Assembly (NCBI RefSeq): GCF_044324785.1
Contig: NZ_CP172127.1
Origin: Escherichia coli
GTDB lineage: Bacteria > Pseudomonadota > Gammaproteobacteria > Enterobacterales > Enterobacteriaceae
Strand: one strand, 5' to 3'
DNA length: 64,000 nucleotides
Shown here: piece after piece, positions 14,452 to 33,465 of the stretch
How the letters are laid out: each line of letters begins with the position of its first letter
Numbering within the stretch: the stretch's first letter is position 1
The notes under the pieces: model-generated
Told to the model about the DNA's origin: nothing
What the model saw: the letters and a program-made list of their open reading frames with translations, nothing else
Databases searched by the model: none
Program-made: the position numbers and the translations under genes

Positions 14452-14500
14452 TGATGCGCCGCGCGATAAATGCACTCTATCTTGTGCGATAAATGGCATC
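14452..14500. repeat. Prophage left terminus with two putative transposase-binding motifs
   Basis: GATAAATG at 14465-14472 and 14488-14495; mirrored at identical offsets at the right end. Confidence 0.6.
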
Positions 14501-14529
14501 CACGCGGCGTTTCATTATTTGAAAAAGAA

Positions 14530-15102
14530 TTACATTTCAGGTTGCGTTATGACAGTCCCAACAGGGTGGTAGCGGTAGATCGTTGACAGTCCAATATCAT
14601 AGATAATTGCCAGCCGCTTTCTGTCATACCCTTTCTGGAGCAATCTTGCGATCTGCTCATGCTGCTCCTTCGTCAGTTTCGGGCGACGTCCTCCAACTCT
14701 TCCTTGTGCTCGCGCAGCAGCCAGTCCTGCCAGCGTGCGCTCAACTATCAGTTCACGCTCCATTTCTGCCAGTGCACCCATCATATGAAAAAAGAACCTT
14801 CCCATCGGAGTGCTGGTATCGATTGAATCCGTCAGACTGCGAAAATTGACACCTTTTGCGCGTAGCTCTTCTGTGAGAGCAATGAGGTGTTTCATTCTTC
14901 TACCCAACCGATCCAGCTTCCAGACCACCAATGTATCCCCTCTTTTAAGGCACTTTAAAGCGCGTTTCAGGCCTGGTCGTTCCGACTTGGTTCCGCTCAT
15001 TTTGTCCTCAAAAATCTGTTCACATCCTGCGCACATTAATGCATTGCGTTGCAAATCTGTGTTTTGGTCATTTGTTGACACACGTATGTAGCCAATCAGC
15101 AT
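14530..15102 (-). CDS. pin: Site-specific DNA invertase, Hin/Gin/Pin serine recombinase family
   Basis: MLIGYIRVSTNDQNTDLQRNAL...GDTLVVWKLDRLGR...MGALAEMERELIVERT is the invertase catalytic domain plus C-terminal HTH; adjacent to tail-fibre cassettes. Confidence 0.9.
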   Translation of the reverse strand: MLIGYIRVSTNDQNTDLQRNALMCAGCEQIFEDKMSGTKSERPGLKRALKCLKRGDTLVVWKLDRLGRRMKHLIALTEELRAKGVNFRSLTDSIDTSTPMGRFFFHMMGALAEMERELIVERTLAGLAAARAQGRVGGRRPKLTKEQHEQIARLLQKGYDRKRLAIIYDIGLSTIYRYHPVGTVITQPEM

Positions 15103-15147
15103 TAAAAATACTCCCTTTTGAGTGGTTAAAGTACTGAGATAATGTGG

Positions 15148-15173
15148 GGAGGATTTGAGAGATAAACGTTGGT
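15148..15173. other. Putative invertase crossover site A (gix/pix-like), core AAACG-TT-GGTTT
   Basis: Core AAACGTTGGTTT at 15155-15166 at the start of the conserved ~200-bp fibre box; identical inverted core at 16779-16790. Confidence 0.45.
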
Positions 15174-15686
15174 TTAGGAGAAGGCTCGGCGCTACCCGTT
15201 GGTGTGCCTGTTCCGTGGCCCACCGCCACACCGCCAGCAGGCTGGTTAAAGTGCGACGGGCGCGCCTTTACAAAAGAACAATATCCTGTTCTGGCCAGAG
15301 TCTACCCGACCCTCCGTCTTCCCGATTTACGCGGTGAGTTTATCCGTGGATGGGACGACGGGCGCAAAGTTGATACAGGACGTAAGTTGCTGTCCGCACA
15401 AGGGGCAACGCTGTTAAGAACAGCAATGCTGGATTATTATAACCAGGACACTACGGGAACCTCGGGGATAGTCGGCATGGGATTCAACAATGAAGATTCC
15501 ATTACAGACCTTCGTGAGGGCAGCTTTAAAATGCCGGACGGGACAACATTCAGCGATCCTGTCGTGGCAATGTCAGACAATGGTATGCAGGCTACTATTC
15601 TGACCTCTATCAGAAGCGGGTATGCGAAGGGTATCACTGTCAGACCCCGTAGCATTGCACTTAATTACATTGTGAGGGCAGTTTAA
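15150..15686 (+). CDS. Tail-fibre C-terminal cassette 3 (start-less alternative variable domain)
   Basis: Frame opens after TGA at 15147-15149 with no ATG; encodes the conserved box GEGSALPVGVPVPWPTATPPAGWL...RGEFIRGWDDGRK then a unique C-terminus ending NYIVRAV. Confidence 0.7.
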
Positions 15687-16300
15687 TGAGTAACACTGCA
15701 GTTCTGGATGAAAACGGTATCGCCACTGTAGCGGGCGAGATCACTGTATATCACTATGACGAGGAAACCCGGGAATACACCTCATCCTCTGTGGAGTATC
15801 TCGCCCTTGGGGTGGGTACTCCGGCACATTCGTGCGCCGATGCACCGCCGGAGGCAATTTCGGGTTACGTGGTTTGCCGGACTGCCACGCTGAACGGGTG
15901 GGAGCATGTGCCTGATCACCGCGGCGAGACGGTATACAGCACGGAGAACGGTAACCCCGTTCTGATTACCCAACCGGGTGATTACCCGGCGGACACCACC
16001 ACAAAACAGCCGGCCACGCCATGGGATACCTGGAACGGTGAGGCGTGGGTAACCGATACTGAACGGCAGCGAGCCGCAGAACTGGAGGTTGCCAGACAGC
16101 AACGCCAGCAACGGGTGAAACAGGCGATGGCGTCCGTCGATCTTATCAACCTCAAACTGCGTGCTGGTCGCAGTCTGACACCAGAAGAAACGGCAAAACT
16201 GAACGCCGTGCTGGATTATATCGACGAGCTGAACGCACTGGATATCAGCACGGCACCTGAAATCAGCTGGCCGGAAGCGCCACTGGCACTTGCCAGCTGA
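15686..16300 (+). CDS. Tail fibre assembly protein (Tfa/U-like)
   Basis: ATG overlaps cassette-3 stop (TAATG); 204 aa, in the position and orientation of a Tfa chaperone for cassette 3. Confidence 0.65.
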   Translation: MSNTAVLDENGIATVAGEITVYHYDEETREYTSSSVEYLALGVGTPAHSCADAPPEAISGYVVCRTATLNGWEHVPDHRGETVYSTENGNPVLITQPGDYPADTTTKQPATPWDTWNGEAWVTDTERQRAAELEVARQQRQQRVKQAMASVDLINLKLRAGRSLTPEETAKLNAVLDYIDELNALDISTAPEISWPEAPLALAS

Positions 16301-16306
16301 ACGGTA

Positions 16307-16780
16307 TCACGCCGCCCTCACGATATAGTTAAACGCGATATTGCGGGGGCGGGTTATGTTAAAGAATGCTCCGTTTAATTCGGCTTTTGCGCGACTGTTT
16401 GTTCCACCCAGAATTGCGTACCACAAATAATCGCTACGGTAATTCCCCGCAAACACCTTATCGCCGCCATAGTCAATATTATTTCCGTTACTCATGTACG
16501 AGATATCCAGCGAAGAATCGTTATCGTCATGACCGCCGACCAGTGTACCTTTCTGCCATGAAAGCAACTTACGCCCCTCGTCAATCTTGCGCCCGTCGTC
16601 CCATCCACGGATAAACTCACCGCGTAAATCGGGAAGACGGAGGGTCGGGTAGACTCTGGCCAGAACAGGATATTGTTCTTTGGTGAACGTAGCTCCGTTG
16701 CACTGTAACCAGCCTGCTGGCGGTGTGGCGGTGGGCCACGGAACAGGCACACCAACAGGCAATGCAGAGCCTTCCCCCAA
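16307..16780 (-). CDS. Tail-fibre C-terminal cassette 2 (unfused alternative variable domain, TTG-initiated frame)
   Basis: Begins with the same conserved box as cassettes 1 and 3 but has a different distal sequence; lies directly after the main fibre stop in +1 frame. Confidence 0.55.
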   Translation of the reverse strand: MGEGSALPVGVPVPWPTATPPAGWLQCNGATFTKEQYPVLARVYPTLRLPDLRGEFIRGWDDGRKIDEGRKLLSWQKGTLVGGHDDNDSSLDISYMSNGNNIDYGGDKVFAGNYRSDYLWYAILGGTNSRAKAELNGAFFNITRPRNIAFNYIVRAA

Positions 16781-16798
16781 ACCAACGTTTTTATGCGG
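16773..16798. other. Putative invertase crossover site B (inverted relative to site A)
   Basis: + strand AAACCAACGTTT at 16779-16790 is the reverse complement of the site A core. Confidence 0.45.
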
Positions 16799-18719
16799 CC
16801 CTTACGATGTAATTAAACGCAACATTGCGGGGGCGCATTGATATCCATGCCCCGGTAAAATTATCCTCCGCTGTCCTTTGAATACCCGTTATAGAGTTAT
16901 CTGCTGATGCAGGAACATAATCGCTATTATTTCCTGCTTTAGGATTAGCTGGGTTTCCAACGGTTATAACAGAATCAGCAGTAGCAAAAGCGATACCTAC
17001 TTTGACATTAGTATTCAGATCGTAACCGTAATAATCCTGCAAAGCTGTACGAATAAATGTTGCAGCCTGACCACTTAGCAATGAACGCCCCGTATCAACT
17101 TTGCGCCCGTCGTCCCATCCACGGATAAACTCACCGCGCAAATCGGGAAGACGGAGGGTCGGGTAGACTCTGGCCAGAACAGGATATTGTTCTTTTGTAA
17201 AGGCGCGCCCGTCACACTTTAACCAGCCTGCTGGCGGTGTGGCGGTGGGCCATGGAACAGGCACACCAACAGGCAGTGCAGAGCCTTCCCCCAAACCAAG
17301 GTAATTGAGGACATCTTTTATACTGCCCTTAGCGATAATAGCGCGACCAATAGCTGTAAGGGTTGCCAGCGCTGCGCGGTCTGCTCCGGTAAAATAAGGC
17401 AACCGATCTGCTGCAGTGGCAAGTCCTGCCAGAGCAGTGAGCGTGGCATCTGCCGGTTGTTTTCCGTTTGCCAGATCGTATGCAGCCTTGACCGCTTTCG
17501 GTGTGGCGGCCAGTATTTCAGACGTGCTGTTGATGGCACTGCTCAATTGTATGGTGCCTTTTGCCGTCAGCGAGGCAGCAGGCACTCCCGTTATCTGACT
17601 CCACGGGTGAGTGTGGCTGACGGGCGCCTTGCCGGCTGCAAGGTCGTATGCAGCCTTGACCGCCTTCGGCGTGGCAGCCTCAGTTTCTGATTGACTGTCC
17701 GTGGCGCTGCTCAGTTGTACGGTGCCTTTTGCCGTCAGCGAGGCAGCAGGCACTCCCGTTATCTGACTCCACGGGTGAGTGTGGCTGACGGGGGCCTTGC
17801 CGGCAGCCAGGTCATATGCAGCCTTGACGGCCTTTGGTGTGGCGGCCAGCGTTTCAGAGGTGCTGTTGGTGGCACTGCTCAGTTGTACGATCCCTTTACG
17901 GGTCGTTGTTGCATCCTGGGCTGTGTATTTTCCCCGGGCCAGATCATACGCGATTTTCACAGCCTTCGGCGTGGCAGCCTCAGTTTCTGATTGACTGTCC
18001 GTGGCGCTGCTCAGTTGTACGGTGCCTTTTGCCGTCAGCGAGGCAGCAGGCACTCCCGTTATCTGACTCCACGGGTGAGTGTGGCTGACGGGGGCCTTGC
18101 CGGCAGCTAGGTCATATGCAGCCTTGACGGCCTTTGGTGTGGCGGCCAGCGTTTCAGAGGTGCTGTTGGTGGCACTGCTCAGTTGTACGATCCCTTTACG
18201 GGTCGTTGTTGCATCCTGGGCTGTGTATTTTCCCCGGGCCAGATCATACGCGATTTTCACAGCCTTCGGCGTGGCAGCCTCAGTTTCTGATTGACTGTCC
18301 GTGGCACTGCTCAGCTGTACGGTGCCTTTTGCCGTCAGCGAGGCAGCAGGCACTCCCGTTATCTGACTCCACGGGTGAGTGTGACTGACGGGTGCCTTGC
18401 CGGCTGCAAGGTCGTATGCAGCCTTGACGGCTTTTGGTGTGGCGGCCAGCGTTTCAGAGGTGCTGTTGGTGGCACTGCTCAGTTGGGTGAACCCCTTAGC
18501 TGTCAGTGTCGCGTCCGGGTGGTTACGGGAACGTACGTGTTCAGCCAGTGACTGTGCGGCTTCCTCCGTTTTTTTCTTCAGCCATTTCGTCCTGTTTGCC
18601 AGTTGCCGGGGGGCTCGATTTGATATCCCGTCAGCACCACCCAGAACCGGATCTGATGTCTCCAGTTGATAGATTTTTTCTTCCCACTTTTCTGTTTCAT
18701 TCAGGTTTCCCATAATCAA
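16791..18719 (-). CDS. Tail fibre protein (642 aa) with internal repeats and C-terminal cassette 1
   Basis: Repeated QLSSAT..SET.AATPKAVK.AYDLA.GK fibre repeat motif; C-terminal region carries the conserved box and ends NYIVRAA. Confidence 0.85.
   Translation of the reverse strand: MIMGNLNETEKWEEKIYQLETSDPVLGGADGISNRAPRQLANRTKWLKKKTEEAAQSLAEHVRSRNHPDATLTAKGFTQLSSATNSTSETLAATPKAVKAAYDLAAGKAPVSHTHPWSQITGVPAASLTAKGTVQLSSATDSQSETEAATPKAVKIAYDLARGKYTAQDATTTRKGIVQLSSATNSTSETLAATPKAVKAAYDLAAGKAPVSHTHPWSQITGVPAASLTAKGTVQLSSATDSQSETEAATPKAVKIAYDLARGKYTAQDATTTRKGIVQLSSATNSTSETLAATPKAVKAAYDLAAGKAPVSHTHPWSQITGVPAASLTAKGTVQLSSATDSQSETEAATPKAVKAAYDLAAGKAPVSHTHPWSQITGVPAASLTAKGTIQLSSAINSTSEILAATPKAVKAAYDLANGKQPADATLTALAGLATAADRLPYFTGADRAALATLTAIGRAIIAKGSIKDVLNYLGLGEGSALPVGVPVPWPTATPPAGWLKCDGRAFTKEQYPVLARVYPTLRLPDLRGEFIRGWDDGRKVDTGRSLLSGQAATFIRTALQDYYGYDLNTNVKVGIAFATADSVITVGNPANPKAGNNSDYVPASADNSITGIQRTAEDNFTGAWISMRPRNVAFNYIVRAA
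17286..17311. other. Putative crossover site C inside the main fibre gene (one half-site degenerate)
   Basis: Reverse complement reads TCAATTACC-TT-GGTTTGGGGGAA; right half conserved, left half diverged. Confidence 0.3.
17290..18510. repeat. Tandem ~300-bp coding repeats within the tail-fibre gene
   Basis: Shadow ORFs 17779-17994 and 18079-18294 are identical (300-bp period); 17834-18088 and 18134-18388 near-identical; protein shows about seven copies of a 45-55-aa motif. Confidence 0.75.
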
Positions 18720-19306
18720 CTGCTCCCGTGGTTATAACTGCCATCATGGATGGCGGTATTGTTATAGCGAATGGCCACAGACTGATACTCCAGGCTGGCC
18801 AGATGGCAGCGGGCCGGTGCAAATGCAGCGAGCGTCTGACGCAGCATCGCGGCCTGATCGTTAGTAATGGGCTGTTTCAGAATAACGCGATAAACCGCCC
18901 AGGCGGCTGCATCTCCATGAACAAACAGTCCGTTATAGCTGCGATTGCCGTCGTAACTGAGACGACCTGTGCCTTCAATCAGATCCACTTCACCAAAGCC
19001 AAAACGGCGGATAACTTCCCGGATTGACCACGGCGTCCCTTTATACCGGTGTAGTTCGATGGCTGCTTTTATAAGCATGCGGCGAACATCGTCCGATTCC
19101 GCCAGCTCCCAGCCATCGCCAGACAGTGAGAACTGCTCGCCCAGCCATGGCAGCGCAGAACTGTCGACGATATCGACGAGAAAGACCATCAGTACGCTCA
19201 GGTCGATGTTATCCAGCCGCCCTGCCAGTCTTCCCAGCGTCCTGAGACTGATATCACCCTCAAGCGGTGGCGGGAGTTGTAATGGCTCAGTCATCAGACA
19301 CTCCAC
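18716..19306 (-). CDS. Baseplate/tail protein, P2 gpI-like
   Basis: Position between baseplate J and tail fibre; size and context. Confidence 0.65.
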   Translation of the reverse strand: MECLMTEPLQLPPPLEGDISLRTLGRLAGRLDNIDLSVLMVFLVDIVDSSALPWLGEQFSLSGDGWELAESDDVRRMLIKAAIELHRYKGTPWSIREVIRRFGFGEVDLIEGTGRLSYDGNRSYNGLFVHGDAAAWAVYRVILKQPITNDQAAMLRQTLAAFAPARCHLASLEYQSVAIRYNNTAIHDGSYNHGSS

Positions 19307-20390
19307 TCATGTTAAGTGTGATCGCCGTACAGTTTGCCCATTCGTTTTCTGCCACCACCCTCAGTGCCGGTGTCACCAGTTCAACCTGGTACACCCCGGA
19401 AACGGACAATGCACTGATAATCTGGCTGGGGACAATATCACGCCCCAGCGTGGCGGCACGTGATGCCACCCAGTTCTGTATGGCGCTGTTAGCGGCATCT
19501 TTTACAGACCTGGCATCCTGATCACGATAGATCGTAATCCTGGCTTCAATGGTGTAATCCACCTTCACTGGTGTTTTAGCCCGCACTGTATCAGTGAGTG
19601 GCCTGACTTTCTCATCAGAGCAGAAACTCTCTACCAGCGTGAGAACACCGCCGTCCGGCAGACCGGTACTGAGCAGCGGATACAGATCTACGGTCCCGGG
19701 AACCGGGGAAAGCACAGCAACATCGACAATGTTGGGATGGGCCTGCATGGCATGAAAGCGGTATGCGCCACGGCTTCCGGCATTGGTGAATGACTCCGGG
19801 GCCAGCCTGATACGCTCCCGGAGCCTGTCATCGTCTTCCTGTTCTGAACCGCCGGAACTGGCCGTCAGATTGCTCACCAGCAGGTCGACGTTATCAATCT
19901 CATCGAGTAACTGACTGACCTGCGCAGGTTGCCAGCCGTTACCAGCGGTACCGGGTTCGGTACAGGTGGACGTGACATTGACCAGCAGCAATCCGGCCTT
20001 CAGTACCACATCTGTATCGGTGGCAAAAATAACGCTGTCGGAAGCGCTGACGCGGGTGCCTGCCGGGATCAGCACATCAATGGTCAGTGCCTCATCCACA
20101 GAGAACTGAAGTGTGGTGGTGGCAGGCTGCGCGGCAAGGCGGTATACACCAACCAGTTCTCCGAGGTAATCAATCATCGGCTCTCGTGAAAAGGCGACCA
20201 GATTCTGCTTTGCTGCCTCCTGTACCGCAACCCTGACCAGCATTTCGCGATAGGCCCACAGATCAATCAGCAGACGTTCTGCCTGTGCCGGGTACAGCGT
20301 TTTGCCGGTATCCGCTTCATACTTCGCAATCATTTCTGCCGTGATTTTGTCGGCATCGCGTTCAATAAAATCGGGTTCTGTCAGCGCCAT
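19287..20390 (-). CDS. Baseplate protein J-like
   Basis: 367 aa, conserved order W-J-I-fibre. Confidence 0.8.
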   Translation of the reverse strand: MALTEPDFIERDADKITAEMIAKYEADTGKTLYPAQAERLLIDLWAYREMLVRVAVQEAAKQNLVAFSREPMIDYLGELVGVYRLAAQPATTTLQFSVDEALTIDVLIPAGTRVSASDSVIFATDTDVVLKAGLLLVNVTSTCTEPGTAGNGWQPAQVSQLLDEIDNVDLLVSNLTASSGGSEQEDDDRLRERIRLAPESFTNAGSRGAYRFHAMQAHPNIVDVAVLSPVPGTVDLYPLLSTGLPDGGVLTLVESFCSDEKVRPLTDTVRAKTPVKVDYTIEARITIYRDQDARSVKDAANSAIQNWVASRAATLGRDIVPSQIISALSVSGVYQVELVTPALRVVAENEWANCTAITLNMSGVSDD

Positions 20391-20728
20391 AGCAACTCCT
20401 GAGTCCGGGTCTGTCCGTCTGAGCCTTTCCAGCTCACCCGGAGCGTAAGATGTTCGCCGTCGACGGCGGGTTTAACTGACATAAGCTGGCAGCGGGGCTC
20501 CCAGCGTCGGATGGCATCGACGGATTCGCGCACCACATGCGGAATGGCCCGGTCTACAGGCCAGTCGATATAAAGATGCAGATTGCTGCCGAACTCCGGG
20601 CGATGCGGGTCGCTGCCGCGGGGAGTCCGCAGGATAATTTGAATCGCCTGCCGGATATCATCCAGCCCCCGGACAATTTCGCCGGGAGCCTGCAGGGTCG
20701 GTTGCCAGAATACTGAGGTTGTTTTCAT
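20381..20728 (-). CDS. Baseplate protein W-like (gp25/lysozyme-like fold family)
   Basis: 115 aa; context between spike V and J. Confidence 0.75.
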   Translation of the reverse strand: MKTTSVFWQPTLQAPGEIVRGLDDIRQAIQIILRTPRGSDPHRPEFGSNLHLYIDWPVDRAIPHVVRESVDAIRRWEPRCQLMSVKPAVDGEHLTLRVSWKGSDGQTRTQELLWR

Positions 20729-20782
20729 GGGGGCAGTATTGCCCCCGTGCGGGAACGCTGATATTAAAGGCGTTTAAAAAGC

Positions 20783-21379
20783 TCAGTGGGAGTGGTGGCT
20801 GGAGTTTTCGCCATCAGACAACATACTGCCCGTGGCATGGGCATTCCCTTTAATCTCGATATTGCCATGGATGGTCGCGGTAACACCTTCACCACCAGAA
20901 CCCGCCATGCCTCCTTCGTAAATCAGCTTACCCCTGACACGCAGATCTCCGGTAAGTTCGGTTTCCGGTGCGTCAATCGTGGCTTTCTGTGTTTTCAATA
21001 CCACATCAGCACCACACTCAATGACAATATGCTCAATGCCGCCCCGGATGATCAGAGTGTGCGTCTTCCGGTTGTAGCTGTACTCTGCACCATCAGCAAA
21101 CCGGGTTCCCCGGATATTTTTGTCACTGAACGGTGGTTTATCGACGTCTGAATACACCGCGCCCAGAATAACACCATCCTCGCCGTTGGCATCGAGCAGC
21201 ACCTCAACCTGCTCCCCCACGTCAGGGAGCCAGTAATCTTTGTTATCCTGGGTATTGCGCTGCAGCACGTTAAGCCAGTTTGTGCGCAGGTTATCGCATT
21301 CAGGCAGACGAACGCGGGCCTGAACCCTGTCGGCATCAACGGCACTGACCGTACCGACCTGACGAGTGACACCAGTCAT
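20783..21379 (-). CDS. Baseplate spike/assembly protein V-like
   Basis: 198 aa, glycine-rich C-terminus with HxH motifs (SSHHSH) typical of spike tips. Confidence 0.75.
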   Translation of the reverse strand: MTGVTRQVGTVSAVDADRVQARVRLPECDNLRTNWLNVLQRNTQDNKDYWLPDVGEQVEVLLDANGEDGVILGAVYSDVDKPPFSDKNIRGTRFADGAEYSYNRKTHTLIIRGGIEHIVIECGADVVLKTQKATIDAPETELTGDLRVRGKLIYEGGMAGSGGEGVTATIHGNIEIKGNAHATGSMLSDGENSSHHSH

Positions 21380-22548
21380 TTTTTCTTCTCTCTTATTACT
21401 GTGGACGTGCTGCCGTCCGGTTTATAGATGGTCAGCATCCGGGTTTTGCCGATTTTTTTACCTTTCTTCGCCTTGCCCTGTGTGATCGGCCCCCGTGCCA
21501 CTTCCAGCTCTGTGGTGTAGCCGCTGTTACGGTCAAACGCATGGCGGGCAGTGGTTATGAGCCATGGCCCGGATAACTGCCCAAAACCCACCAGTTCAAT
21601 TTTGTTGCCTGCTGTCAGTTGAGGTGTTCCCGTCAGCGTCAGGGAGCCGTTCTGCTGGTATTCGTTATGTCTGGCCAGTGCTGAATCCGCTTTAATCCGG
21701 GCACTGTCCGGGTCGCTGACGCGGCTGTTAACTTTAAGTGAGTCAGCGCTGGTAACCTTACCACCTTTGAGCTTTTTGTCGCTTTCACGGGTACCACCAT
21801 CAGCTTCGTAGACGATCAGTTTTTTACTGCTGCTTTTCTGGTGTTTTACCTTTGCAGATTTATAGACCCGGTTGATGGTGTCACGCAGGGAAAAGCGGGC
21901 CACATCCTGCGGTTTTAACTGCCTGACCGGCTCCTGACTGCGCAGTGTGGCCAGATGAGAAAAAATCAGCTGGTCACTGACCACTTTCACTGCATAACCA
22001 TACTCGCTGGCCAGCCGGCGCAGAAAACCCACGTCGGTTTCAGCATACTGGGTCACCCGGTCGATTCTGATGGACTCAATGCTGCCCACCAGTTTCAGCC
22101 GGTGCTTTCTGGCAATCCGCCCCGCAACAGCTGCCAGCGTGGTGTTCTCAAAACCACGACTGGTTTTAGTCCGCAGGGCACTGTTAACCGAGGTGGCCAC
22201 CCCACGGATAGAAACAACGGAAGCGGGCGAACTCACTTCGATCTCGTCTATAGAGAACGTACCGCAGGACAGCAGCTTCTCGTCCTGATAGCCCATTTTC
22301 AGCGTCAGCGTGTCACCCTTGCCCGGATACCACTTATCCAGCCAGCGGCCATCGGTGTCGTCCAGCTCCACCTCAATGGTATCGGACTCATTTTTGATGT
22401 TATCGCTCCAGGTCACACGGGTGACATAAGGCGCGATATCAGAGGTGATGTTTTTCTGCAGATACCACAGAGTGAACACCGGTGTCAGCACATCGCTGAC
22501 GCCGGTTAACGCTGATGTGACTTGCGCAGTGCTGTTTATCTCAGCCAT
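21376..22548 (-). CDS. Baseplate hub protein (P2 gpD / Mu gp44-like)
   Basis: 390 aa, position after tail protein X. Confidence 0.7.
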   Translation of the reverse strand: MAEINSTAQVTSALTGVSDVLTPVFTLWYLQKNITSDIAPYVTRVTWSDNIKNESDTIEVELDDTDGRWLDKWYPGKGDTLTLKMGYQDEKLLSCGTFSIDEIEVSSPASVVSIRGVATSVNSALRTKTSRGFENTTLAAVAGRIARKHRLKLVGSIESIRIDRVTQYAETDVGFLRRLASEYGYAVKVVSDQLIFSHLATLRSQEPVRQLKPQDVARFSLRDTINRVYKSAKVKHQKSSSKKLIVYEADGGTRESDKKLKGGKVTSADSLKVNSRVSDPDSARIKADSALARHNEYQQNGSLTLTGTPQLTAGNKIELVGFGQLSGPWLITTARHAFDRNSGYTTELEVARGPITQGKAKKGKKIGKTRMLTIYKPDGSTSTVIREKKK

Positions 22549-22751
22549 GGGGCAATATCCTCTTCTGTACGGGCTTCTTCAGCCTCAATCACCGGGATCA
22601 GTAACAACAGCCCGGAGGGCAGCACCGGCGTGATGGCCACGTGCGGATTGGCGGCAATAATCCGGGGATAGCCCAGCGGGTCACCGTAGTACTGCCATGC
22701 CAGCGAATCCCAGCGCTCTCCGTCACGGGTAACATGTTCAAGAAACATCAC
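22536..22751 (-). CDS. Tail protein X-like (small LysM-like)
   Basis: 71 aa with WDSLAWQYYGDP...IAANPHV...GLLLLIP pattern. Confidence 0.7.
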   Translation of the reverse strand: MMFLEHVTRDGERWDSLAWQYYGDPLGYPRIIAANPHVAITPVLPSGLLLLIPVIEAEEARTEEDIAPWLR

Positions 22752-23632
22752 ACACTCCTCGTCAGTATTCTGGCGGCCATTGCACTTAATCCCGGAGACA
22801 TGCGGTTGAATGCTGTTCCGACGGCGTTAAGCTGCCCGGAAACGGTATCCAGAGCACCTGCAATATTTCTTTTGTCCACACCACTCAGCGCAGACTGTGC
22901 CTGCTGTACATACGTGGCTGCTTCGCTGGCTGTTCTGGCCAGACTGATGGCATCGGGCATGGATTCAGAGAGTGCGTTAAACGCCGGAACACTTTTCCCC
23001 AGAGCCCCGGAGATATTACCCAGTCCGCTCATCAGCCCCGGCACACGGGTCAGTGCGACAACGGGGTTATCCTTCATTTTCTGTGTCACCCGAACGGCGC
23101 TGATAGTGGTCTGGAGTACAGACTGCGCCTGTTTCGCATAGTTGACGCCGTTGCGGATGAACTGCGCCACCCCGGAAGGTGAAGGAATGGCACCGGAGAC
23201 CGCCCCGACACCCGGGAGCTTCGTGCGTATTGCCGGTGGTTGCAGAGGATTTTTCGGGTCACCGGTGTATTCCCGGAGAGACACGGTGGCACTGACAGCC
23301 AGCACGTTGCCGGTACTGTCAGTCTGCTCGCTGGTTGCAGTCACATCGGTAATCACGAACCAGCCGCGATAGTCACCGTTGCCGAAGACCAGCGCCAGTG
23401 CCTGATGGGCTTTCATGGCTGTTCGCAGTCTCGCCAGCTCCACATCGGGTACACAATAATGCTGATGGAAAACCAGAGTTATCTGGATTTCGTCCAGCCT
23501 GTCGCCGACGAACTGCAGGCCAGGCTTACCCCCGATGCGGGCATGCTCCGCATAATCGACGCCGAACGTGGCCTCGAAGCCGTCCCAGTAGGTAATCAGC
23601 TCAAACTCAATATCACCCAGTACGGCAAACAT
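22748..23632 (-). CDS. Tail protein (P2 gpU / Mu DNA-circularisation protein N-like)
   Basis: 294 aa between tape measure and X; assignment by position. Confidence 0.5.
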   Translation of the reverse strand: MFAVLGDIEFELITYWDGFEATFGVDYAEHARIGGKPGLQFVGDRLDEIQITLVFHQHYCVPDVELARLRTAMKAHQALALVFGNGDYRGWFVITDVTATSEQTDSTGNVLAVSATVSLREYTGDPKNPLQPPAIRTKLPGVGAVSGAIPSPSGVAQFIRNGVNYAKQAQSVLQTTISAVRVTQKMKDNPVVALTRVPGLMSGLGNISGALGKSVPAFNALSESMPDAISLARTASEAATYVQQAQSALSGVDKRNIAGALDTVSGQLNAVGTAFNRMSPGLSAMAARILTRSV

Positions 23633-26600
23633 CAGCGGTACTCCTTACGTTGTTTCTGAGCCAGCAGACGCTCCAGCATTTTTTCCAGCTCATGCAGACT
23701 CATATTCAGGGCACCAGTCAGTCCTGCAGGCGCTGTGGTTTCCCTGCCATTGAGGAAAAACTGAGGATTAAAGCTGACCTGGATACCACCAGACGTTCCA
23801 CCGCCGGTTGCAGCTGCACCACGGCCTGAATATCCGGCAGCCAGGATTTCAGGCGAGGGGATACGGGGAACATCCGGTGTCATCTCATTTGCCAGACGTT
23901 GCCCTGGTAAAATCGATGCCCGGGTGGAGAGCGGAATAACGGGCATGGAAGACAAACTATTGATTACGGCTCCGATCGCATTTTTAGCAGACGACATAAA
24001 CCCATTGATATCGGGCAACGGCATACTGAAGCGAACACCTGAAGTGTTATCCCGTATTTCTGGCCCCTGAATGCTCACGGGCATTCTGGGGAGCAGTTCA
24101 CTGGCCATTCGCTGCCCGGCCAGAGCTGCAAGCGGAGTGGTCCGCTGCAGGCCAATGGCGGCCCCCTGCGCGATATTGTCACCAAAGCCCATAAACACGC
24201 GGCTCGGCGAATGAATGCCCAGCTTTTCGCTGAACCAGCCACTGATGCTGTCACCCATTCCGGTTACACTGGATTTGAGCGACTCCCATTTGTTTTTGAT
24301 ACCGTTAATCAGACCGTCGACAAGATGGCCACCGAAGTCGGTGAACTTTGCCGGCAGATCAACACCAAGATATTTCAGCGCAGCTGCAAAGGCTTTATAG
24401 AGCAGACCTGCCGGCGACCAGTTAATCAGCAGCTTACCAGTTCCCGCGATACCGCCGTTAAAGGCTTCCTGAATGTCAGCCCAGCACTGTTTAAACCAGC
24501 TACTGATGCTGTCACCCATTCCGGTTACACTGGATTTGAGCGACCCCCATTTGTTTTTGATACCGTTAATCAGACCGTCGATAAGATGGCCACCGAAGTC
24601 GGTGAACTTTGCCGGCAGAGCAACGCCGAAATATTTCAGCGCAGCCGCAAAGGCTTTATAGAGCAGGCCTGCCGGCGACCAGTTAATCAGCAACTTACCA
24701 ATTCCCACAATGCCGCCGTTAAAGGCTTCCTGAATGTCAGCCCAGCGCTGTTTAAACCAGCTACTGATGCTGTCACCCATTCCGGTTACACTGGATTTGA
24801 GCGACCCCCATTTGCTTTTGATACCGTTAATCAGACCGTCGATAAGATGGCCACCGAAGTCGGTGAACTTTGCCGGCAGAGCAACGCCGAAATATTTCAG
24901 CGCAGCCGCAAAGGCTTTATAGAGCAGGCCTGCCGGCGACCAGTTAATCAGCAACTTACCAATTCCCACAATGCCGCCGTTAAAGGCTTCCTGAATGTCA
25001 GCCCAGCGCTGTTTAAACCAACCACTGACAGCCCCCCAGTTGCGGTAGATAAGGTAAGCTGCTGTCGCGACAGCGGTGATAACGAGACCGATGGGATTCA
25101 TCATCAGCGCTCGCCCAATCCAGAGAACGGCACGTGCAGCGCTCATAAAACCGCGAACGAGGCTGCCCGCCAGAACTTTGCTGAGTTTCAGTCCTCCGCT
25201 GGTCAGTCGGCTGAATCCAGTGACAAGCCAGCGTAATTTGCCACCTTCTCCGAGTGCGGTAGTCAGTCGATGCCAGTTGGTCCGGAGTAAAACAGTAGTT
25301 TTCCAGACGTTCACAAAGGGGGAAATAAGGAGATTCAGCCCCAGTTTGAGACCAATAGTCGCTATCTTAATCGCAAGGAGCGCACTGATGAGCTTAAAAG
25401 CCCCACTGACAAATTGCGGGTGAGTCGCTACCCAGTGTTTTGTCCCCTGAATGAGTGGGAGCAGTTCCTGAGTCAGAGAAATAAAAGATGGAGCTAATTG
25501 ATCGCCCAGCGTAATTGCCAGATCGCGACTGCTGACCATAAGTGTTTTAGTGGCTTCAAGGGGAGATTTCAGCCGCTGATCATAAGCACTGGCAAGCAAA
25601 TCGTTATCCGCAGCCCTGAGAGCACCGGCACGGATCTCTCGATATCTGTCCATGTTGGCCAGCATCGGGCGGATAAATGCCATGACCTGCATATCCGCGA
25701 ACATATCGCCCAGACCAAAGTTTTTCGCCAGAGCCTGAAGTGCCTCATCTCTTGCCGTATCATTCTTTATTTTCATGGCTGATTTGAAGCCGGCCAGCGC
25801 TTCGGGGCTTTTGGCATTGAGGTAACGTTCTATAACACTCAACATCCCTTCAATCGGAGAGATCCCCGCAGCTTTATAACTCGCAATAGATCCCTGCAAA
25901 TCAATACCCAGATCAGCAAACTGTTTCTGAGTATCGCGGGCAAAAATTTTGGTAAGAAAGTTTTTAAAATTATTGGCTGCTTCGTCGGTGGAACCTGCAC
26001 CGATTTTTGCTATCTGGAGACTGGCCCCGATTTCAGCAACAGCCTCTTTTCCACTGGCAAGACCCGCCATCATTGGGGCCAGGGACTGCATCCACTTGAC
26101 CTGATCCGGGATTTCAAATGACCCCTGGTCACCGGCATAAGCCATAATATTCTGAACGGCACCAAAATCTCTGGCCGCACCTTTCAGGGAGTTTTGCCAG
26201 ACTGCGGCCACTTTTGCCCAGTCCTGAGCAGACGTGCGTGTTGCCGTTGCCGCGCGGGCAATATCCGGCATCAGAAAACCGATATCTGACACATTATCAA
26301 TATTGTCGCTGATGAGTGAACCCACCGCCTCCTGCAGCTCATCCTGATACTGATTGTATTTAAGCGCCCAGCCTTTTATCTGTCCGGCAAGTGCATCCCG
26401 CGTTTTATTGTCATATTTTGCGGTGATCGACATATCAATCATTTTGTCCTGAAAAGACATGGACTGCTGAACGGCAGGGGAAACCGTATGATAAACAGTC
26501 TGTGCCATGCCATACGCTTCAATCCCCTGACCATACAGCGCCATGCGGTTAGCTTTCAGCGCATCACTGGTAGCGGATGCCGCTGACAGACGGCGCTGCT

Positions 26601-26844
26601 GGCGCTCAATTTGCTCCATGGTGCGGCTTACCCGCAGCAGCTCGCTGTTGAGATGCTGCATCCGGGAAGAACCCAGTTGACCATAACGTTCTGTTGCACG
26701 GGTTAAAGCGTTCTGACGTTCCTGCAGGCGGCGTGAGGTATCGCTCAGGGAATCAAGCGCACGGCGGGTACCGCTCATTGCAGAACGGAATGTGCTGCCA
26801 ATCATCCCGCCGATAACAACGCCGACTGAAAACTGTCCCGACAT
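23632..26844 (-). CDS. Tail tape measure protein (1070 aa) with internal triplicated 87-aa repeat
   Basis: Long, Ala/Gly-rich, coiled-coil-like N-terminus; sits after the tail chaperones. Confidence 0.85.
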   Translation of the reverse strand: MSGQFSVGVVIGGMIGSTFRSAMSGTRRALDSLSDTSRRLQERQNALTRATERYGQLGSSRMQHLNSELLRVSRTMEQIERQQRRLSAASATSDALKANRMALYGQGIEAYGMAQTVYHTVSPAVQQSMSFQDKMIDMSITAKYDNKTRDALAGQIKGWALKYNQYQDELQEAVGSLISDNIDNVSDIGFLMPDIARAATATRTSAQDWAKVAAVWQNSLKGAARDFGAVQNIMAYAGDQGSFEIPDQVKWMQSLAPMMAGLASGKEAVAEIGASLQIAKIGAGSTDEAANNFKNFLTKIFARDTQKQFADLGIDLQGSIASYKAAGISPIEGMLSVIERYLNAKSPEALAGFKSAMKIKNDTARDEALQALAKNFGLGDMFADMQVMAFIRPMLANMDRYREIRAGALRAADNDLLASAYDQRLKSPLEATKTLMVSSRDLAITLGDQLAPSFISLTQELLPLIQGTKHWVATHPQFVSGAFKLISALLAIKIATIGLKLGLNLLISPFVNVWKTTVLLRTNWHRLTTALGEGGKLRWLVTGFSRLTSGGLKLSKVLAGSLVRGFMSAARAVLWIGRALMMNPIGLVITAVATAAYLIYRNWGAVSGWFKQRWADIQEAFNGGIVGIGKLLINWSPAGLLYKAFAAALKYFGVALPAKFTDFGGHLIDGLINGIKSKWGSLKSSVTGMGDSISSWFKQRWADIQEAFNGGIVGIGKLLINWSPAGLLYKAFAAALKYFGVALPAKFTDFGGHLIDGLINGIKNKWGSLKSSVTGMGDSISSWFKQCWADIQEAFNGGIAGTGKLLINWSPAGLLYKAFAAALKYLGVDLPAKFTDFGGHLVDGLINGIKNKWESLKSSVTGMGDSISGWFSEKLGIHSPSRVFMGFGDNIAQGAAIGLQRTTPLAALAGQRMASELLPRMPVSIQGPEIRDNTSGVRFSMPLPDINGFMSSAKNAIGAVINSLSSMPVIPLSTRASILPGQRLANEMTPDVPRIPSPEILAAGYSGRGAAATGGGTSGGIQVSFNPQFFLNGRETTAPAGLTGALNMSLHELEKMLERLLAQKQRKEYR
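24200..25020. repeat. Three tandem ~261-bp coding repeats inside the tape-measure gene
   Basis: Shadow ORFs at 24215, 24473 and 24734 are near-identical; protein repeats ISSWFKQRWADIQEAFNGGIVGIGKLLINWSPAGLLYKAFAAALKYFGVALPAKFTDFGGHLIDGLINGIK.KW.SLKSSVTGMGDS three times. Confidence 0.8.
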
Positions 26845-26919
26845 AGTGGTTAACCTCCGGGGAAGGTGAAAAGACGTGAGGGGATAACGCAGAACAGCCG
26901 CTACTGGCGGCTGTCTGTA

Positions 26920-27177
26920 CTATGATTTGTCGCCGTACTCGCTTTTGATTTGCTCTTCAGCCTGCTCCAGCCACATCTCCAGATCGTCAGTATCGAGGGC
27001 ATCAATCTCCCCCGGCTGAAACCGGAACCATCTCGCCAGCAGCCCCTGCGCCTGCGTCAGCGCCCTGGTTGCTCTCACCCATCCCCGTGATGAGCTGAAA
27101 TCGTTTCTGTAACTGCAGGTAATCAGCCAGATCCATATTGTCGAGATCTTCCGGGAGAAGACCAGTACTGCGGGCAA
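26920..27177 (-). other. Overlapping +1-frame extension of the tail chaperone (putative programmed-frameshift product)
   Basis: Second frame overlaps the last ~58 codons of the chaperone and continues 27 codons past its stop (...GEIDALDTDDLEMWLEQAEEQIKSEYGDKS). Confidence 0.4.
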
Positions 27178-27337
27178 TCAGCGGTTCGTCCCAGTCTGCC
27201 GGGTTTTTGCTGATTTTGCGCACCTGCTTCAGGTCTTTTACCGTCAGGCGTTTCAGTTCAACCAGCTCAATTCTGGTGCCTGCAGCAGTGGTGAAGGGAT
27301 AAGACAATTTAAAAGTATCGGATGGGGTCTGTGACAT
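27002..27337 (-). CDS. Tail assembly chaperone (upstream frame)
   Basis: 111 aa immediately upstream of tape measure. Confidence 0.6.
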   Translation of the reverse strand: MSQTPSDTFKLSYPFTTAAGTRIELVELKRLTVKDLKQVRKISKNPADWDEPLIARSTGLLPEDLDNMDLADYLQLQKRFQLITGMGESNQGADAGAGAAGEMVPVSAGGD

Positions 27338-27434
27338 GATTGTGCTCCTGTGTAAGTTCAGGGCAGTATGTCGGGAGAAGCGCGTGACGGATATTAAAGG
27401 AGATTAAGAAGAAGGGGCCGGAGCCCCTGTGATG

Positions 27435-27716
27435 TCAGCAAGTGCGAAACCCCTTGCAGTTACGCAGGAAAGCGATGAGAAGCGTCTTTCCCTCAGATTT
27501 GCCGATGCCGGAGAACCAGTGGTCGGGAGGCTCCCATGCTTCAATCAAATCCGCCAGTTTGCGGGCCTTTGAACGTGTGCAGTCAATCGGGTCATTGGTT
27601 TTACGGGTATTAAAAAGGGTTTCCACCCCCGGAATATCAAGGAGGGTAAACCACGTACCATTTGACATGCCCAGTGCCGCACATCGTCCTCCTTTATCCG
27701 TCAGTTCAACACTCAC
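27435..27716 (-). CDS. Hypothetical phage protein (93 aa)
   Basis: ORF between tail tube and chaperone. Confidence 0.4.
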   Translation of the reverse strand: MSVELTDKGGRCAALGMSNGTWFTLLDIPGVETLFNTRKTNDPIDCTRSKARKLADLIEAWEPPDHWFSGIGKSEGKTLLIAFLRNCKGFRTC

Positions 27717-27718
27717 CG

Positions 27719-28240
27719 TCAGCCCCCGATATTGATACGGTAGTCAGTCAGTTGATCAACACCGCCGACCCGGAAGATGTTGGCCAGATAGTCCAGTTGC
27801 AGCAGCTCTTCACCATCCAGTACCTGTCTGATATACGTGCAGGTGAAGCTACTGGAGAACTCGGCGTTCTCGTGCTGTTTGAACGTCCCCAGCGGGTTCT
27901 TCTTGAACATAATCGTCAGGAAGGTGACCAGCGGGATTTCGTCAATCAGCCCCTGCGAGCTGTAGCGCTGGACGCTGGAACGACACTGCAGTGCCAGCGA
28001 CCTGTACGGGTTCGCGGCAGACAGCATCGCATCGCGGTAAAAGCTGTTCCATTTGATTTCGCCTTCCAGCTTGTCAAAACCAGCCGGGAGTTCCACCTTA
28101 CCCACCATCCCCAGCGCCTTGTGTTCCTGCATAATCATGGAGACATCGGGGAGTTTGACTTCCTCAGCCCGTCCCAGCAGGTTAGTACCATCCAGATAGA
28201 TGTTGGCATTCGTGATGCGGTTTATCTCAATCTTTGACAT
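27719..28240 (-). CDS. Tail tube protein
   Basis: 173 aa directly downstream of sheath. Confidence 0.8.
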   Translation of the reverse strand: MSKIEINRITNANIYLDGTNLLGRAEEVKLPDVSMIMQEHKALGMVGKVELPAGFDKLEGEIKWNSFYRDAMLSAANPYRSLALQCRSSVQRYSSQGLIDEIPLVTFLTIMFKKNPLGTFKQHENAEFSSSFTCTYIRQVLDGEELLQLDYLANIFRVGGVDQLTDYRINIGG

Positions 28241-29667
28241 CAGTTGCCCCCTTTCAGGGTTAACAGGTATTCCGAGGTGATCTCAGTCTCAAACGTCAGT
28301 CGCTCCAGCGGCGGTGGTGGCGTATATTTGTAGCTCAGCAACAGGTGCCCGGCGGCCAGCTCCGTCTCCGGATTGCGGGCCGGATCAAACCAGCAACGGA
28401 AGCCCAGTACCGCACCATCACCAGTCATTTTGCGACCGTAGGCGTTGACCGACTCCGTCAGTGCATCAATCAGCGCCTGAGTAATCGGCATGTCGATGTA
28501 CTGCTGGCTGAAATAACGAATGGACTCGTTGATCACATCACCGGTGCGGCGAACGTTCTCAAAGTTACGCATATGGGTGACCGTTGGCCATGCTGCCGTC
28601 CGGTTACCCCACAGACGAAGGCCGCTGCCGTAACTGCTGAATACCGTGGTGATCCCCTGTTCGTTAAGCAGGTTCACCTCACTCTGCGGGTCATCAATCA
28701 TCGCGGACAGCTGGCGCTCCACGCCGGTGATCCCCAGAATCTCCTGATTGGAGGATGACCACCAGTAGCCCTTGTCCAGATCGACTCTGGCACGCAGACC
28801 TGCTGCACGCTGGCTGAGCGGCTCCAGACGCTCTGTGTTTGTCACCGGGTCATATACCTTCACATGCGGATAGCACAGACGGACGCGGTCGGAGCTGGTA
28901 TTGAAGTTGATGGTGCCTTCCGGGCCACGACCTGCCAGAGCCTGTGCAAAGGTGGTACCGACAGGCGCATCAATGTAGGTTACCGCGCCCAGCTTCTCTG
29001 CCATGGCGATAAGCTCAACTGCGACACTCTTCTGGGTGCAGAACACCGGCGCAATCAGAATTTTGGCGAAATAGCCGTACAGGTTGAAGCTGTCGTTAAG
29101 CAGCTTCATGCCGGTTCGGTTTCCGGCGCTGTTCACCCCGCCGATGATGTCCGCCGCAGTCACCTTCGACGGGTCCGCGTACTCATAGCTCACCTTCACG
29201 CTGCCACCGGCCTCAATAGCCTTGCCCAGGTTCGTGAGCACACCCGCCTGCGCATCAACACGGTAGTCCGTGTTCGCCGTGTGGGTGGTGCTGCCTTCAC
29301 TGTTTTTCACCACCACATTAGCGACAACCGGATGCGCCAGTCTGGCCTGCCCTGTCGATTTGTCAAAGGTAACCACCTCATCCTCGATCGCCGTTTTATG
29401 TTTCGCCGGGTCGAGGACGTTAATGACCAGAACGGTGCCTGCACCATGGTCATAAATCGCATCCAGCGCCTGCGGAATGGTAAAGCCGGTGAACTGGCTG
29501 CCAAATGCCGCTGCGTCTTTCTCAGACAGGCACTGTACCAGCGTATTGACATCCCCCATCGGGGCGGTACCAATCAGGCCAATAACGGCAGATTTCACCG
29601 TTTTAACCGGGCGGGCACCGTTTTCCACCTCAATGGTTTCGGGACCATGCAGATAGTTAGCTGCCAT
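28240..29667 (-). CDS. Contractile tail sheath protein
   Basis: 475 aa, first tail gene after head-completion genes. Confidence 0.85.
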   Translation of the reverse strand: MAANYLHGPETIEVENGARPVKTVKSAVIGLIGTAPMGDVNTLVQCLSEKDAAAFGSQFTGFTIPQALDAIYDHGAGTVLVINVLDPAKHKTAIEDEVVTFDKSTGQARLAHPVVANVVVKNSEGSTTHTANTDYRVDAQAGVLTNLGKAIEAGGSVKVSYEYADPSKVTAADIIGGVNSAGNRTGMKLLNDSFNLYGYFAKILIAPVFCTQKSVAVELIAMAEKLGAVTYIDAPVGTTFAQALAGRGPEGTINFNTSSDRVRLCYPHVKVYDPVTNTERLEPLSQRAAGLRARVDLDKGYWWSSSNQEILGITGVERQLSAMIDDPQSEVNLLNEQGITTVFSSYGSGLRLWGNRTAAWPTVTHMRNFENVRRTGDVINESIRYFSQQYIDMPITQALIDALTESVNAYGRKMTGDGAVLGFRCWFDPARNPETELAAGHLLLSYKYTPPPPLERLTFETEITSEYLLTLKGGN

Positions 29668-29911
29668 GGGTGTCCTCCGTTTTCACTTCGCTGTCACTGC
29701 TGCTTCTGCGCTTTGGTGACTGCACAGCCGGTGTGCCGGCGGGTTTAGTCTCTTCAGGTACCGGCGTCAGATGTTTCAGCGCCACCAGTACCTTCACGTA
29801 GTCATGCTCCTCCGGCAGGGAAACCGTCTTCCCCGGCCAGAGCAGGATTTCGGTTCCGTCCGACAGCGTGACGCCGCTGGCCGGGCCGGAATAGCGGTAT
29901 TCTTTCATCAC
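29657..29911 (-). CDS. Small phage structural/completion protein
   Basis: 84 aa, overlapping start/stop with neighbours. Confidence 0.45.
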   Translation of the reverse strand: MMKEYRYSGPASGVTLSDGTEILLWPGKTVSLPEEHDYVKVLVALKHLTPVPEETKPAGTPAVQSPKRRSSSDSEVKTEDTHGS

Positions 29912-30372
29912 TCGCTTTCCTCATAGTTCACTTCGGTTAACAGCGGGCCGGACGGTAAATCGCTGTCTTCGATAAAGACGCTTTCAGTCGCGAAGTCGAG
30001 GGCGTACTGCCACAGCCCCCTGACTTCACCGATAAACACCTCGCGGGTCAGCCAGATACGGCGGCGGCAGCCGGGCGGGGTGTGGCCACCGAGAATGCGG
30101 CGGACAGCATCCAGGACATTAATCGCCCCTTTTTTACCGTTGAGCTGGCGGAAGACCACCGTGACGCAGAGCTGGATAGTCTGAGACTGGATCACCGCAC
30201 CGGTATCATCCGGCCTGTCAAAGCGCGAACCGGCATAGCTCAACAGCAACGCGCCAACCGGATGGTTCAGGCGATATTCAGCCGGTTTCTCCGGGAAGTA
30301 CTCCACCTGCAGTTGCGGCAGCTTCTCGCGTAACCGGGCCAGTACCGCATCAAGGACGGGCAGAACGTTCAT
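29908..30372 (-). CDS. Phage head-tail joining protein (Mu gp37-like position)
   Basis: 154 aa; coupled stop/start with neighbours. Confidence 0.5.
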   Translation of the reverse strand: MNVLPVLDAVLARLREKLPQLQVEYFPEKPAEYRLNHPVGALLLSYAGSRFDRPDDTGAVIQSQTIQLCVTVVFRQLNGKKGAINVLDAVRRILGGHTPPGCRRRIWLTREVFIGEVRGLWQYALDFATESVFIEDSDLPSGPLLTEVNYEESE

Positions 30373-30815
30373 CAGTATTTCTCCAGTAAACCGTCACGAC
30401 CGCCGAAAGTAGCCGGGCGACTGCGTACACGAAACTCGCCAGGCTCAGGCACATCTTTCTGAGTGGACGGCAGCCCCAGCGTGAGCCTGTTATCACGTAA
30501 CTCCCTGAGTTGCCGCAGCGCTTCTTTGTGGTCATCCTTCACCGTATCCGGGAGGTCACCTTCCGGGCGGCGGGCGTAGAGCCGGTAACGGACCAGCGTG
30601 ATGGCAATGTCCCGCAGAACAGTCGGTATCTCTGCCAGTGGCAGGATATAGCGTCCGCGCAGATGGGCATCAATCAGCTCGTCGGCATAGCGGATACAGC
30701 TGTCCACCACACGGGTATTCACTGTTGCAGGTGAGTCGAAGTCCATCTCTTCACTGGTGAGCTCGATAAGCGTCCGCTCCGGCACCTGCGCAAGCAAATC
30801 CTCCAGGGTGCAGTA
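30372..30815 (-). CDS. Phage head completion protein (Mu gp36-like position)
   Basis: Probable start MYCTLEDLL at 30815. Confidence 0.5.
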   Translation of the reverse strand, partial: YCTLEDLLAQVPERTLIELTSEEMDFDSPATVNTRVVDSCIRYADELIDAHLRGRYILPLAEIPTVLRDIAITLVRYRLYARRPEGDLPDTVKDDHKEALRQLRELRDNRLTLGLPSTQKDVPEPGEFRVRSRPATFGGRDGLLEKY

Positions 30816-30819
30816 CATG

Positions 30820-31158: not shown

Positions 31159-31167
31159 AACGCCTCC

Positions 31168-32121: not shown

Positions 32122-32135
32122 GCTCTCTCCTTAAA

Positions 32136-33251: not shown

Positions 33252-33465
33252 TTTGCTGTCCCGCGTTATGTTGTCGGAGACAGTTTGTGAGAAATGCAGG
33301 CCCGGCGATTTTAATCTGCTTTAGAAAACATCAGGGGAGAAGGACAGGGAAAGCAATGCGGTGAACCGGAGGCGGTTATAAAACAGAGGCTGTAAAGCCT
33401 TTATAAAGGTAATACAGCCCCTCATTCGCTGGCAATGATAAATCACCCGCCTGAAGAGAGAAAAC

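Follow-up and report, generated by a model that had tools for sequence, protein, structure and literature searches.

Din-family DNA invertases switch the tips of tail fibres in phage Mu, in P1 (the C segment, with Cin), in e14 (the P segment, with Pin) and in Shigella. The Min system of plasmid p15B, on which Sandmeier, Iida and Arber worked in 1990–92, is reportedly a multi-site Din fibre switch; Min has six sites and gives 240 isomers, and p15B is a P1-like plasmid. A locus that belongs with these systems lies within 64,000 nucleotides of Escherichia coli DNA (contig NZ_CP172127.1 of RefSeq assembly GCF_044324785.1), the whole of which is referred to here as the window. The locus is very probably an active, nested DNA-inversion switch with three sites, of the Gin/Cin/Pin/Min (Din) family, at the right end of a BcepMu-like prophage. 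It comprises a constant 5' part of a tail-fibre gene (Sc), three alternative 3' cassettes (Sv1, Sv2 and Sv3), one tail-fibre assembly gene (tfa3) and an invertase gene (pin), arranged around three crossover sites that are called A, B and C.

The locus shares with the G segment of Mu a serine invertase (77% identity to Gin), 26-bp sites with a 2-bp core, a site where the constant fibre part meets the variable one, an invertase gene immediately next to the segment at the phage's right-hand end and a Mu-like order of the baseplate genes. A constant 5' part outside the segment, which is continued in frame by alternative 3' parts without a start codon, is likewise the layout of Mu G and P1 C. Mu G, however, has two sites, two states and one chaperone per tip (S-U and S'-U'), whereas three sites, four isomers and three tips are found here with a single chaperone gene; the pattern of Mu G and P1 C, in which each tip has its own assembly gene, is thus absent, tfa3 standing alone after Sv3. 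The tips are also unlike those of Mu in being short collar-domain cassettes of about 160–170 amino acids. The initial annotation of this DNA had called the switch more complex than the two-state Mu G segment, and with three sites and four isomers it is, yet it is not a new kind of system in view of the six sites of Min and the inversion of Phi2 that is described below.

Min and the present locus have in common a Din serine invertase, more than two sites, overlapping segments and a constant 5' part with several start-less 3' fibre parts. This likeness is drawn from established knowledge and from secondary citations, the Min work of Sandmeier and colleagues being cited in PMC5903667 and PMC11850598. 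The two differ in scale and in carrier: the present locus, borne by a transposable prophage, has three sites with four isomers, and Min, borne by a plasmid, six with 240. The R64 shufflon is similar in that multiple inversion swaps the C-terminal ends of an adhesin (PilV); membership of the shufflon (Rci) group was considered and rejected, as the enzyme here is a serine recombinase and Rci is a tyrosine recombinase.

A member of the same prophage family has been described as Phi2 of E. coli EC958, for which Forde et al. (2014; PMC4134206) obtained separate PacBio contigs with both Phi2 orientations from one culture. The Phi2 sites are given in Table 3 of that paper as TCCTCAATTACCTT GGTTTAGGAGAA and GAGAGATAAACGTT GGTTTGGGGGAA, sequences that no other paper in the literature searched was found to print. 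Phi2 has an invertase identical to that of the window, the same left half-sites of A (the Phi2_5prime site) and C (the Phi2_3prime site), the Sv3 cassette and tfa. As in the window, three cassettes are present in the EC958 sequence, and so is a third, internal site, GGCATAGAAACG TT GGTTTGGGGGAA, whereas the paper describes two crossover sites, one segment of 2,067 bp and mirror-image alleles, and does not describe the internal site or the four isomers. EC958 carries other alleles of Sv1 and Sv2 and the 5' part of its fibre gene is annotated as a pseudogene, whereas the fibre gene of the window is intact. The novelty of the present locus is modest and lies in the internal third site and the single assembly gene for three tips; the mechanism is already known.

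Crossover sites and invertase

A repeat search of the window recovered one box in three copies, which is far above chance expectation. The copies form a direct repeat (16563-16788 and 17077-17302; 226 nt, 90% identity) and two inverted repeats (15166-15439 and 17029-17302, 274 nt, 88% identity; 15164-15394 and 16560-16790, 231 nt, 89% identity). The initial annotation had described a conserved box of about 200 bp that occurs three times and heads three cassettes, two direct and one inverted. Both descriptions are borne out by the repeat search and by alignment, the box itself measuring 226–274 nt at 88–90% identity.

Each box is headed by a site (Table 1), with A and B in direct orientation and C inverted. 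The sites have the form that is expected of Din sites, namely 26 bp made up of two imperfect 12-bp half-sites around a 2-bp core that is the same in the partners. When read in the sense of the fibre gene, the central TT and a near-identical right half-site, GGTTT(G/A)GG(G/A)GAA, are common to all three, and the right half-sites fit the consensus quoted in Table 3 of PMC4134206. The left half-sites differ, being TCCTCAATTACC in A, CGCATAAAAACG in B and GAGAGATAAACG in C. The cores of site B (AAACC-AA-CGTTT, 16779-16790) and site A (17293-17304) lie where they had been placed at the outset, whereas that of site C lies at 15164-15175 and not at 15155-15166, an offset of 9 nt. The TAA stop codon of the fibre gene (16791-16793) sits in the left half-site of B.

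Table 1. Positions of the switch components and of the prophage that carries them, numbered along the window
Feature	Position	Strand	Remarks
Host element, BcepMu-like transposable prophage, 38,341 bp	14452..52792		TG...CA ends, 6-bp duplication GTTCCC; inserted in phoX, complete-looking
pin, Gin/Pin-type serine DNA invertase, 190 aa	14530..15102	minus	intact; PHROG 125 DNA invertase, E = 1e-94
Candidate Fis-dependent recombinational enhancer	14949..15009	minus	inside pin, coding nt 94-154
Site C, 26 bp	15157..15182	plus	GAGAGATAAACG TT GGTTTAGGAGAA; central TT 15169-15170; adjoins invertase gene
Cassette Sv3, start-less 3' fibre part	15169..15686	plus	collar box 15171-15394 and variable tip; PHROG 523 tail collar fibre, E = 3e-67
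Segment Y (Sv3, tfa3, Sv2), invertible	15171..16783		1,613 nt between C and B cores
tfa3, tail-fibre assembly gene, 204 aa	15686..16300	plus	Caudo_TAP PF02413, E = 5e-28; PHROG 105, E = 4e-88
Cassette Sv2, start-less 3' fibre part	16307..16785	minus	PHROG 523, E = 3e-65; without own assembly gene
Site B, 26 bp	16772..16797	minus	CGCATAAAAACG TT GGTTTGGGGGAA; central dinucleotide 16784-16785
Segment X (Sv1), invertible/deletable	16786..17297		512 nt between A and B cores
Cassette Sv1	16791..17299	minus	fused in frame to Sc in window; collar box 17077-17297 and variable tip
Tail-fibre gene, 642 aa	18719..16791	minus	intact in window
Site A, 26 bp	17286..17311	minus	TCCTCAATTACC TT GGTTTGGGGGAA; central dinucleotide 17298-17299, within fibre open reading frame
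Constant 5' part Sc	17300..18719	minus	seven Phage_fiber_2 repeats (Pfam PF03406 x7)

The assignment of the enzyme as a Pin-type invertase was correct. The protein aligns over residues 1-181 with the Mu Gin structures 4M6F and 3UJ3 (E = 2e-93) at 76.8% identity and its helix-turn-helix region matches that of Hin (1HCR), so that it has the expected build of a Din invertase, a serine recombinase of about 190 amino acids with the catalytic serine near position 9-10 and a C-terminal helix-turn-helix. The catalytic serine, which the initial annotation had singled out as a residue to check, is kept as Ser9 in the alignment with Mu Gin, as is Met114. Exchange of this methionine in Gin (M114V) makes the enzyme independent of Fis (PMC3575834), and Met114 is the Fis-dependent wild type. 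All related loci carry the annotation of an identical protein, WP_000904922.1.

The candidate enhancer within pin consists of two Fis-like, A/T-centred 15-mers of the form G-N13-C, centred at nt 101 and 147 of the gene and found at the same positions in Mu gin. The 5' part of pin is 78–80% identical to gin DNA locally and the whole gene 69%. The signal is suggestive only, because the same region codes for the most conserved residues and the positional resemblance is confounded with coding constraint.

Four isomers in complete genomes

The invertase would bind the three TT-core sites and exchange strands between any two of them that are inverted. Segments X and Y could thereby take four arrangements (Table 2), in each of which one of the three cassettes, collar with tip, would continue Sc in frame, and such an exchange of tips would presumably change receptor specificity and host range. 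Starting from the window, which is in state S0, the arrangements S1, S2 and S3 were made in silico with cuts exactly at the core dinucleotides and on the assumption that the enzyme uses inverted sites only. For each of the three constructs a real complete genome exists that agrees with it along all 4,189 nt apart from 2 mismatches and without gaps, and none of the mismatches falls at a junction. The match to S1 is provided by Esc31 and BLSE177-2012, that to S2 by strain CP103710 of sequence type 131 (ST131) and that to S3 by Esc30. All three tips can be reached through nested inversions alone (A with C, B with C, and A with B after B has been flipped), and the three sites, the segments X and Y and the four isomers that are seen make this a multiple-inversion system.

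Table 2. The four arrangements of segments X and Y (a prime marks the opposite orientation)
State	Sites and segments	Order of parts	Fibre
S0 (window)	A X B Y C'	Sc-Sv1, Sv2, tfa3', Sv3', pin	Sc-Sv1
S2	A X B Y' C'	Sc-Sv1, Sv3-tfa3, Sv2', pin	Sc-Sv1, then Sv3-tfa3
S1	A Y' B' X' C'	Sc-Sv3-tfa3, Sv2', Sv1', pin	Sc-Sv3, with tfa3
S3	A Y B' X' C'	Sc-Sv2, tfa3', Sv3', Sv1', pin	Sc-Sv2

The individual junctions were counted in 5,426 complete E. coli genomes with short diagnostic queries at a coverage of at least 80%. The Sc-Sv1, Sc-Sv2 and Sc-Sv3 junctions were found in 77, 102 and 327 genomes and the pin-Sv1, pin-Sv2 and pin-Sv3 junctions in 131, 102 and 299, these numbers being rough because loci with two and three cassettes, genomes with several such prophages and allelic variants are mixed in them. 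The three fusions to Sc occur at up to 100% identity and are all in frame, and the exchange of the fibre tip among three variants, as originally proposed, is thereby confirmed. The junction between the stop codon of Sv1 and Sv3 (Sv1stop-Sv3), which can be created solely via exchange at site B, was found in 54 genomes by the same rough count.

A plasmid of strain AVS0973, NZ_CP124473.1 (94.8 kb), likewise has the Sv1stop-Sv3-tfa junction (25820-26854), and in each of the junction searches 170–420 of the matching places lay on plasmids. Phage-plasmids thus seem to be a further vehicle on which these cassettes circulate.

Recent activity and the point of exchange

Activity of the switch can be demonstrated within this prophage family. 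Esc30 (S3) and Esc31/BLSE177-2012 (S1) have the same malE insertion and chromosome lengths that lie within 28 bp of each other, and when the 12.7-kb locus of Esc30 is compared with that of Esc31 by BLAST the sole rearrangement is an inversion of 1,620 nt between A and B. JJ1886 and JJ1887 hold a sister prophage at the same aroA-adjacent insertion in opposite states, and the same is true of the Swedish faecal isolates 4/4 and 4/1-1. Inversion between inverted sites is thus seen both as isomers in complete genomes and in pairs of isolates that are separated by a single inversion. In EC958, JJ1886, JJ1887, 4/4 and 4/1-1, all of ST131 clade C, Sc is annotated as a fragmentary pseudogene and the orientation of the segment still differs between sister isolates; switching continues in this clade after the decay of the fibre gene.

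Strain 2016C-3878 (NZ_CP029747.1) has a two-cassette locus, Sc-Sv3-tfa3-Sv2'-pin, from which X is absent; along 3,675 nt it agrees at 100.000% identity with what a core-to-core deletion of X would leave. The locus represents either a rare deletion between direct sites, whether mediated by the invertase or homologous, or an ancestor from before the gain of X. Recombination between the direct boxes had been put forward in the initial annotation as a way of swapping tips; its effect is to delete a cassette, and the exact deletion derivative exists in this strain, whereas all tips are reached by inversions alone.

In every isomer the left half-sites are stationary, whilst the right half-site and the entire box move with the cassette. 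The nearest distinguishing bases confine the exchange to an interval of 7 nt (TTGGTTT) between A and C, 12 nt between B and C and 23 nt between A and B. With the exchange held within 7–23 nt of the core, the process is site-specific and not homologous recombination. The boxes are in themselves long enough, and similar enough at 88–90% identity, for RecA-dependent homologous recombination to produce the isomers, in which case the invertase would be irrelevant. Such a process, however, would spread the points of exchange over 226–274 nt, whereas the whole box is seen to stay with its cassette; the junctions expected from cuts exactly at the core recur at 100% identity in dozens of genomes, and the sites agree with the Din consensus (PMC4134206, Table 3). 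An origin of the isomers by homologous recombination is therefore very unlikely, and of the two routes that the initial annotation had offered, inversion is the one supported, with the exchange at the core dinucleotide and not spread over the box.

It is even less likely that only the outer sites A and C work, as in a classic two-state switch, with site B and cassette 2 as relics of duplication. This would agree with the account of Phi2 by Forde et al., who give just two sites and one invertible segment, but S2 and S3 both need site B, the Sv1stop-Sv3 junction recurs among the genomes and Esc30 differs from Esc31 by the A with B inversion only. Assembly artefacts across the inverted repeats of public genomes come into question as well, since repeats of 230–270 nt are open to mis-joining in short-read assemblies. 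The collection searched, however, consists of complete-level assemblies only and the four states recur across many independent projects. PacBio reads that span the segment show both orientations at the sister locus of EC958 (PMC4134206), and in other ST131 prophages (Entero_P88 and BP-4795) inversions of tail-fibre sequences were confirmed by PCR and XmnI digests (10.1101/2022.05.07.487787), so that the probability of an artefact is close to negligible.

Some points nevertheless weigh against the locus being an active three-site switch that is driven by its own enzyme. That switching takes place in the window's own strain would follow from the identical loci elsewhere. Catalysis by this Pin and its dependence on Fis and on an enhancer are likewise inferred, the enhancer being put forward on account of its position, and another invertase may act in trans, as E. 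coli strains often carry several. Moreover, one assembly gene serves three tips and is antisense in S0 and S3, and some states might therefore give defective fibres.

Cassettes and the single assembly gene

In their first 75 residues, the collar, the three cassettes share 91–99% identity and in the remainder only 42–51%, and all three end in RPR(N/S)(V/I)A(F/L)NYIVRA(A/V). Residues 485-532 of the fibre correspond to the Pfam Collar domain (PF07484, E = 1e-14). A comparison of the variable C-termini with known fibre tips, which the initial annotation had recommended, gave a match of the Sv1 collar and the C-terminal NYIVRA strand to the receptor-binding tip of T4 gp37 (2XGF, E = 1e-15). From the shared collar, the shared C-terminus and this match, each cassette would consist of a compact collar, a variable tip and a return strand. 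A search of a phage collection with the variable parts of Sv1 and Sv2, meant to show whether tips of this sort usually have a Tfa beside them, returned just 2 and 9 matches, which were weak or self. The open reading frame of the Sv2 fragment covers 157 amino acids (16780..16307, minus). Sv3 is preceded by an in-frame TGA (15156-15158) and has no ATG, and it is followed by its own assembly gene of the Caudo_TAP family, just as the initial annotation had read this start-less cassette.

The ATG of tfa3 overlaps the stop codon of Sv3, and the locus has no assembly gene besides tfa3. What comes straight after Sv1 and Sv2 is a site or the end of tfa3, and neither cassette has an assembly gene of its own. 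A comparison of Tfa3 with the sequences of the PDB gave no match. Whilst tfa3 is co-directional with the fibre operon in S1 and S2, it is antisense in S0 and S3, and S0 and S2 specify the same Sc-Sv1 fibre with different genes downstream. A sigma-70 scan for an outward promoter near pin and site C or upstream of tfa3 found none there, although this is a weak test, the region giving 1 match where 3.0 were expected.

The layout with a single chaperone is the only feature of the locus that could hide something unexpected. The switch may conceivably control more than the identity of the tip, in that Sv1 and Sv2 fold without Tfa, or that there is a fourth phenotype (the same fibre with or without Tfa) or a fraction of virions with defective fibres, but this is rather unlikely. 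Folding of the tip independently of Tfa is unusual for fibres of the Mu and P2 type. If a fourth phenotype or defective virions did exist, inversion at the internal site would toggle the supply of chaperone or adhesin and not the sequence of the fibre. On the preferred reading, a nested switch that selects among three tips, it is of interest in itself how a single assembly protein copes with all of them.

The shaft of the fibre contains a tandem array with a period of 300 nt (2.7 copies, 98% matches; 17662-18485) in addition to a second array of 168 nt, both lying within 17469-18485. The fibre coding sequence measures 1,623 nt in KS21, 1,923 in AR_0081 and 1,995 in AVS0969, with different numbers of repeat copies. 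As the copy number varies among related strains, the length of the shaft changes by gain and loss of repeats.

Consequences for related genomes

A working three-way switch, which would act on host range, is thus carried by a prophage that is common in pandemic E. coli lineages including ST131. As all four isomers are present in public genomes, differences in fibre annotation between near-identical isolates at this locus are to be read as programmed inversions and not as mutations, translocations or assembly errors, and parked cassettes are what the fragments with the annotation 'phage tail protein' or 'partial' represent. In ST131 isolates from wounds, a preprint describes a 'DNA translocation', left unexplained there, that involves the fibre sequences of a prophage of the 'Burkho_phiE255' type (10.1101/2022.05.07.487787). 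This could reflect a difference of the S0/S3 type, where two inversions give the appearance of a swap. With three sites and one enzyme, the locus is a compact, natural, minimal multiple-inversion system that can be used to study the choice of sites by Din invertases and their bias between inversion and deletion.

The host prophage and its setting

The switch locus (4.3 kb) is 100% identical to that of several complete E. coli genomes. The bounds of the prophage were set by comparing the window with the empty, intact phoX of strain SCU-115; this comparison also placed the far end. The element interrupts a gene for a PhoX-family phosphatase, an insertion that none of the complete E. coli genomes searched (5,426) shares. 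In other genomes the same element lies beside unrelated truncated host genes (yjjI, yecR, malE, barA, the aroA region and others), with 8 different insertion sites, and one end, beginning TGATGCGCCGCGCGATAAATG, is common to all loci. A DDE-transposase-like (rve-like) protein and an ATPase are encoded at 45109-48055, and the record of the related phage PhiKM is classed as Bcepmuvirus. The TG...CA ends, the target duplication, the many insertion sites and the transposase with its ATPase are those of a transposable phage of the Mu/BcepMu type. These ends, the duplication, the transposase and ATPase genes and the classification of PhiKM mark the element as a transposable prophage of the BcepMu type, and the switch forms its right end, the position that G and gin occupy in Mu.

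In the record of Escherichia phage PhiKM (PQ738613.1, 'partial genome') the fibre gene ends just past site A, where it is joined to a fragment that bears the annotation 'Fe2+ ABC transporter permease'. This odd junction is probably an artefact of assembly or of the prophage boundary at an invertible region. In the host DNA to the left of phoX (10700-12900), the genes of an ABC transporter (an ATP-binding protein and an iron permease) are frameshifted; since the same genes are annotated as pseudogenes in SCU-115, where the site is empty, their decay is older than the insertion of the prophage.

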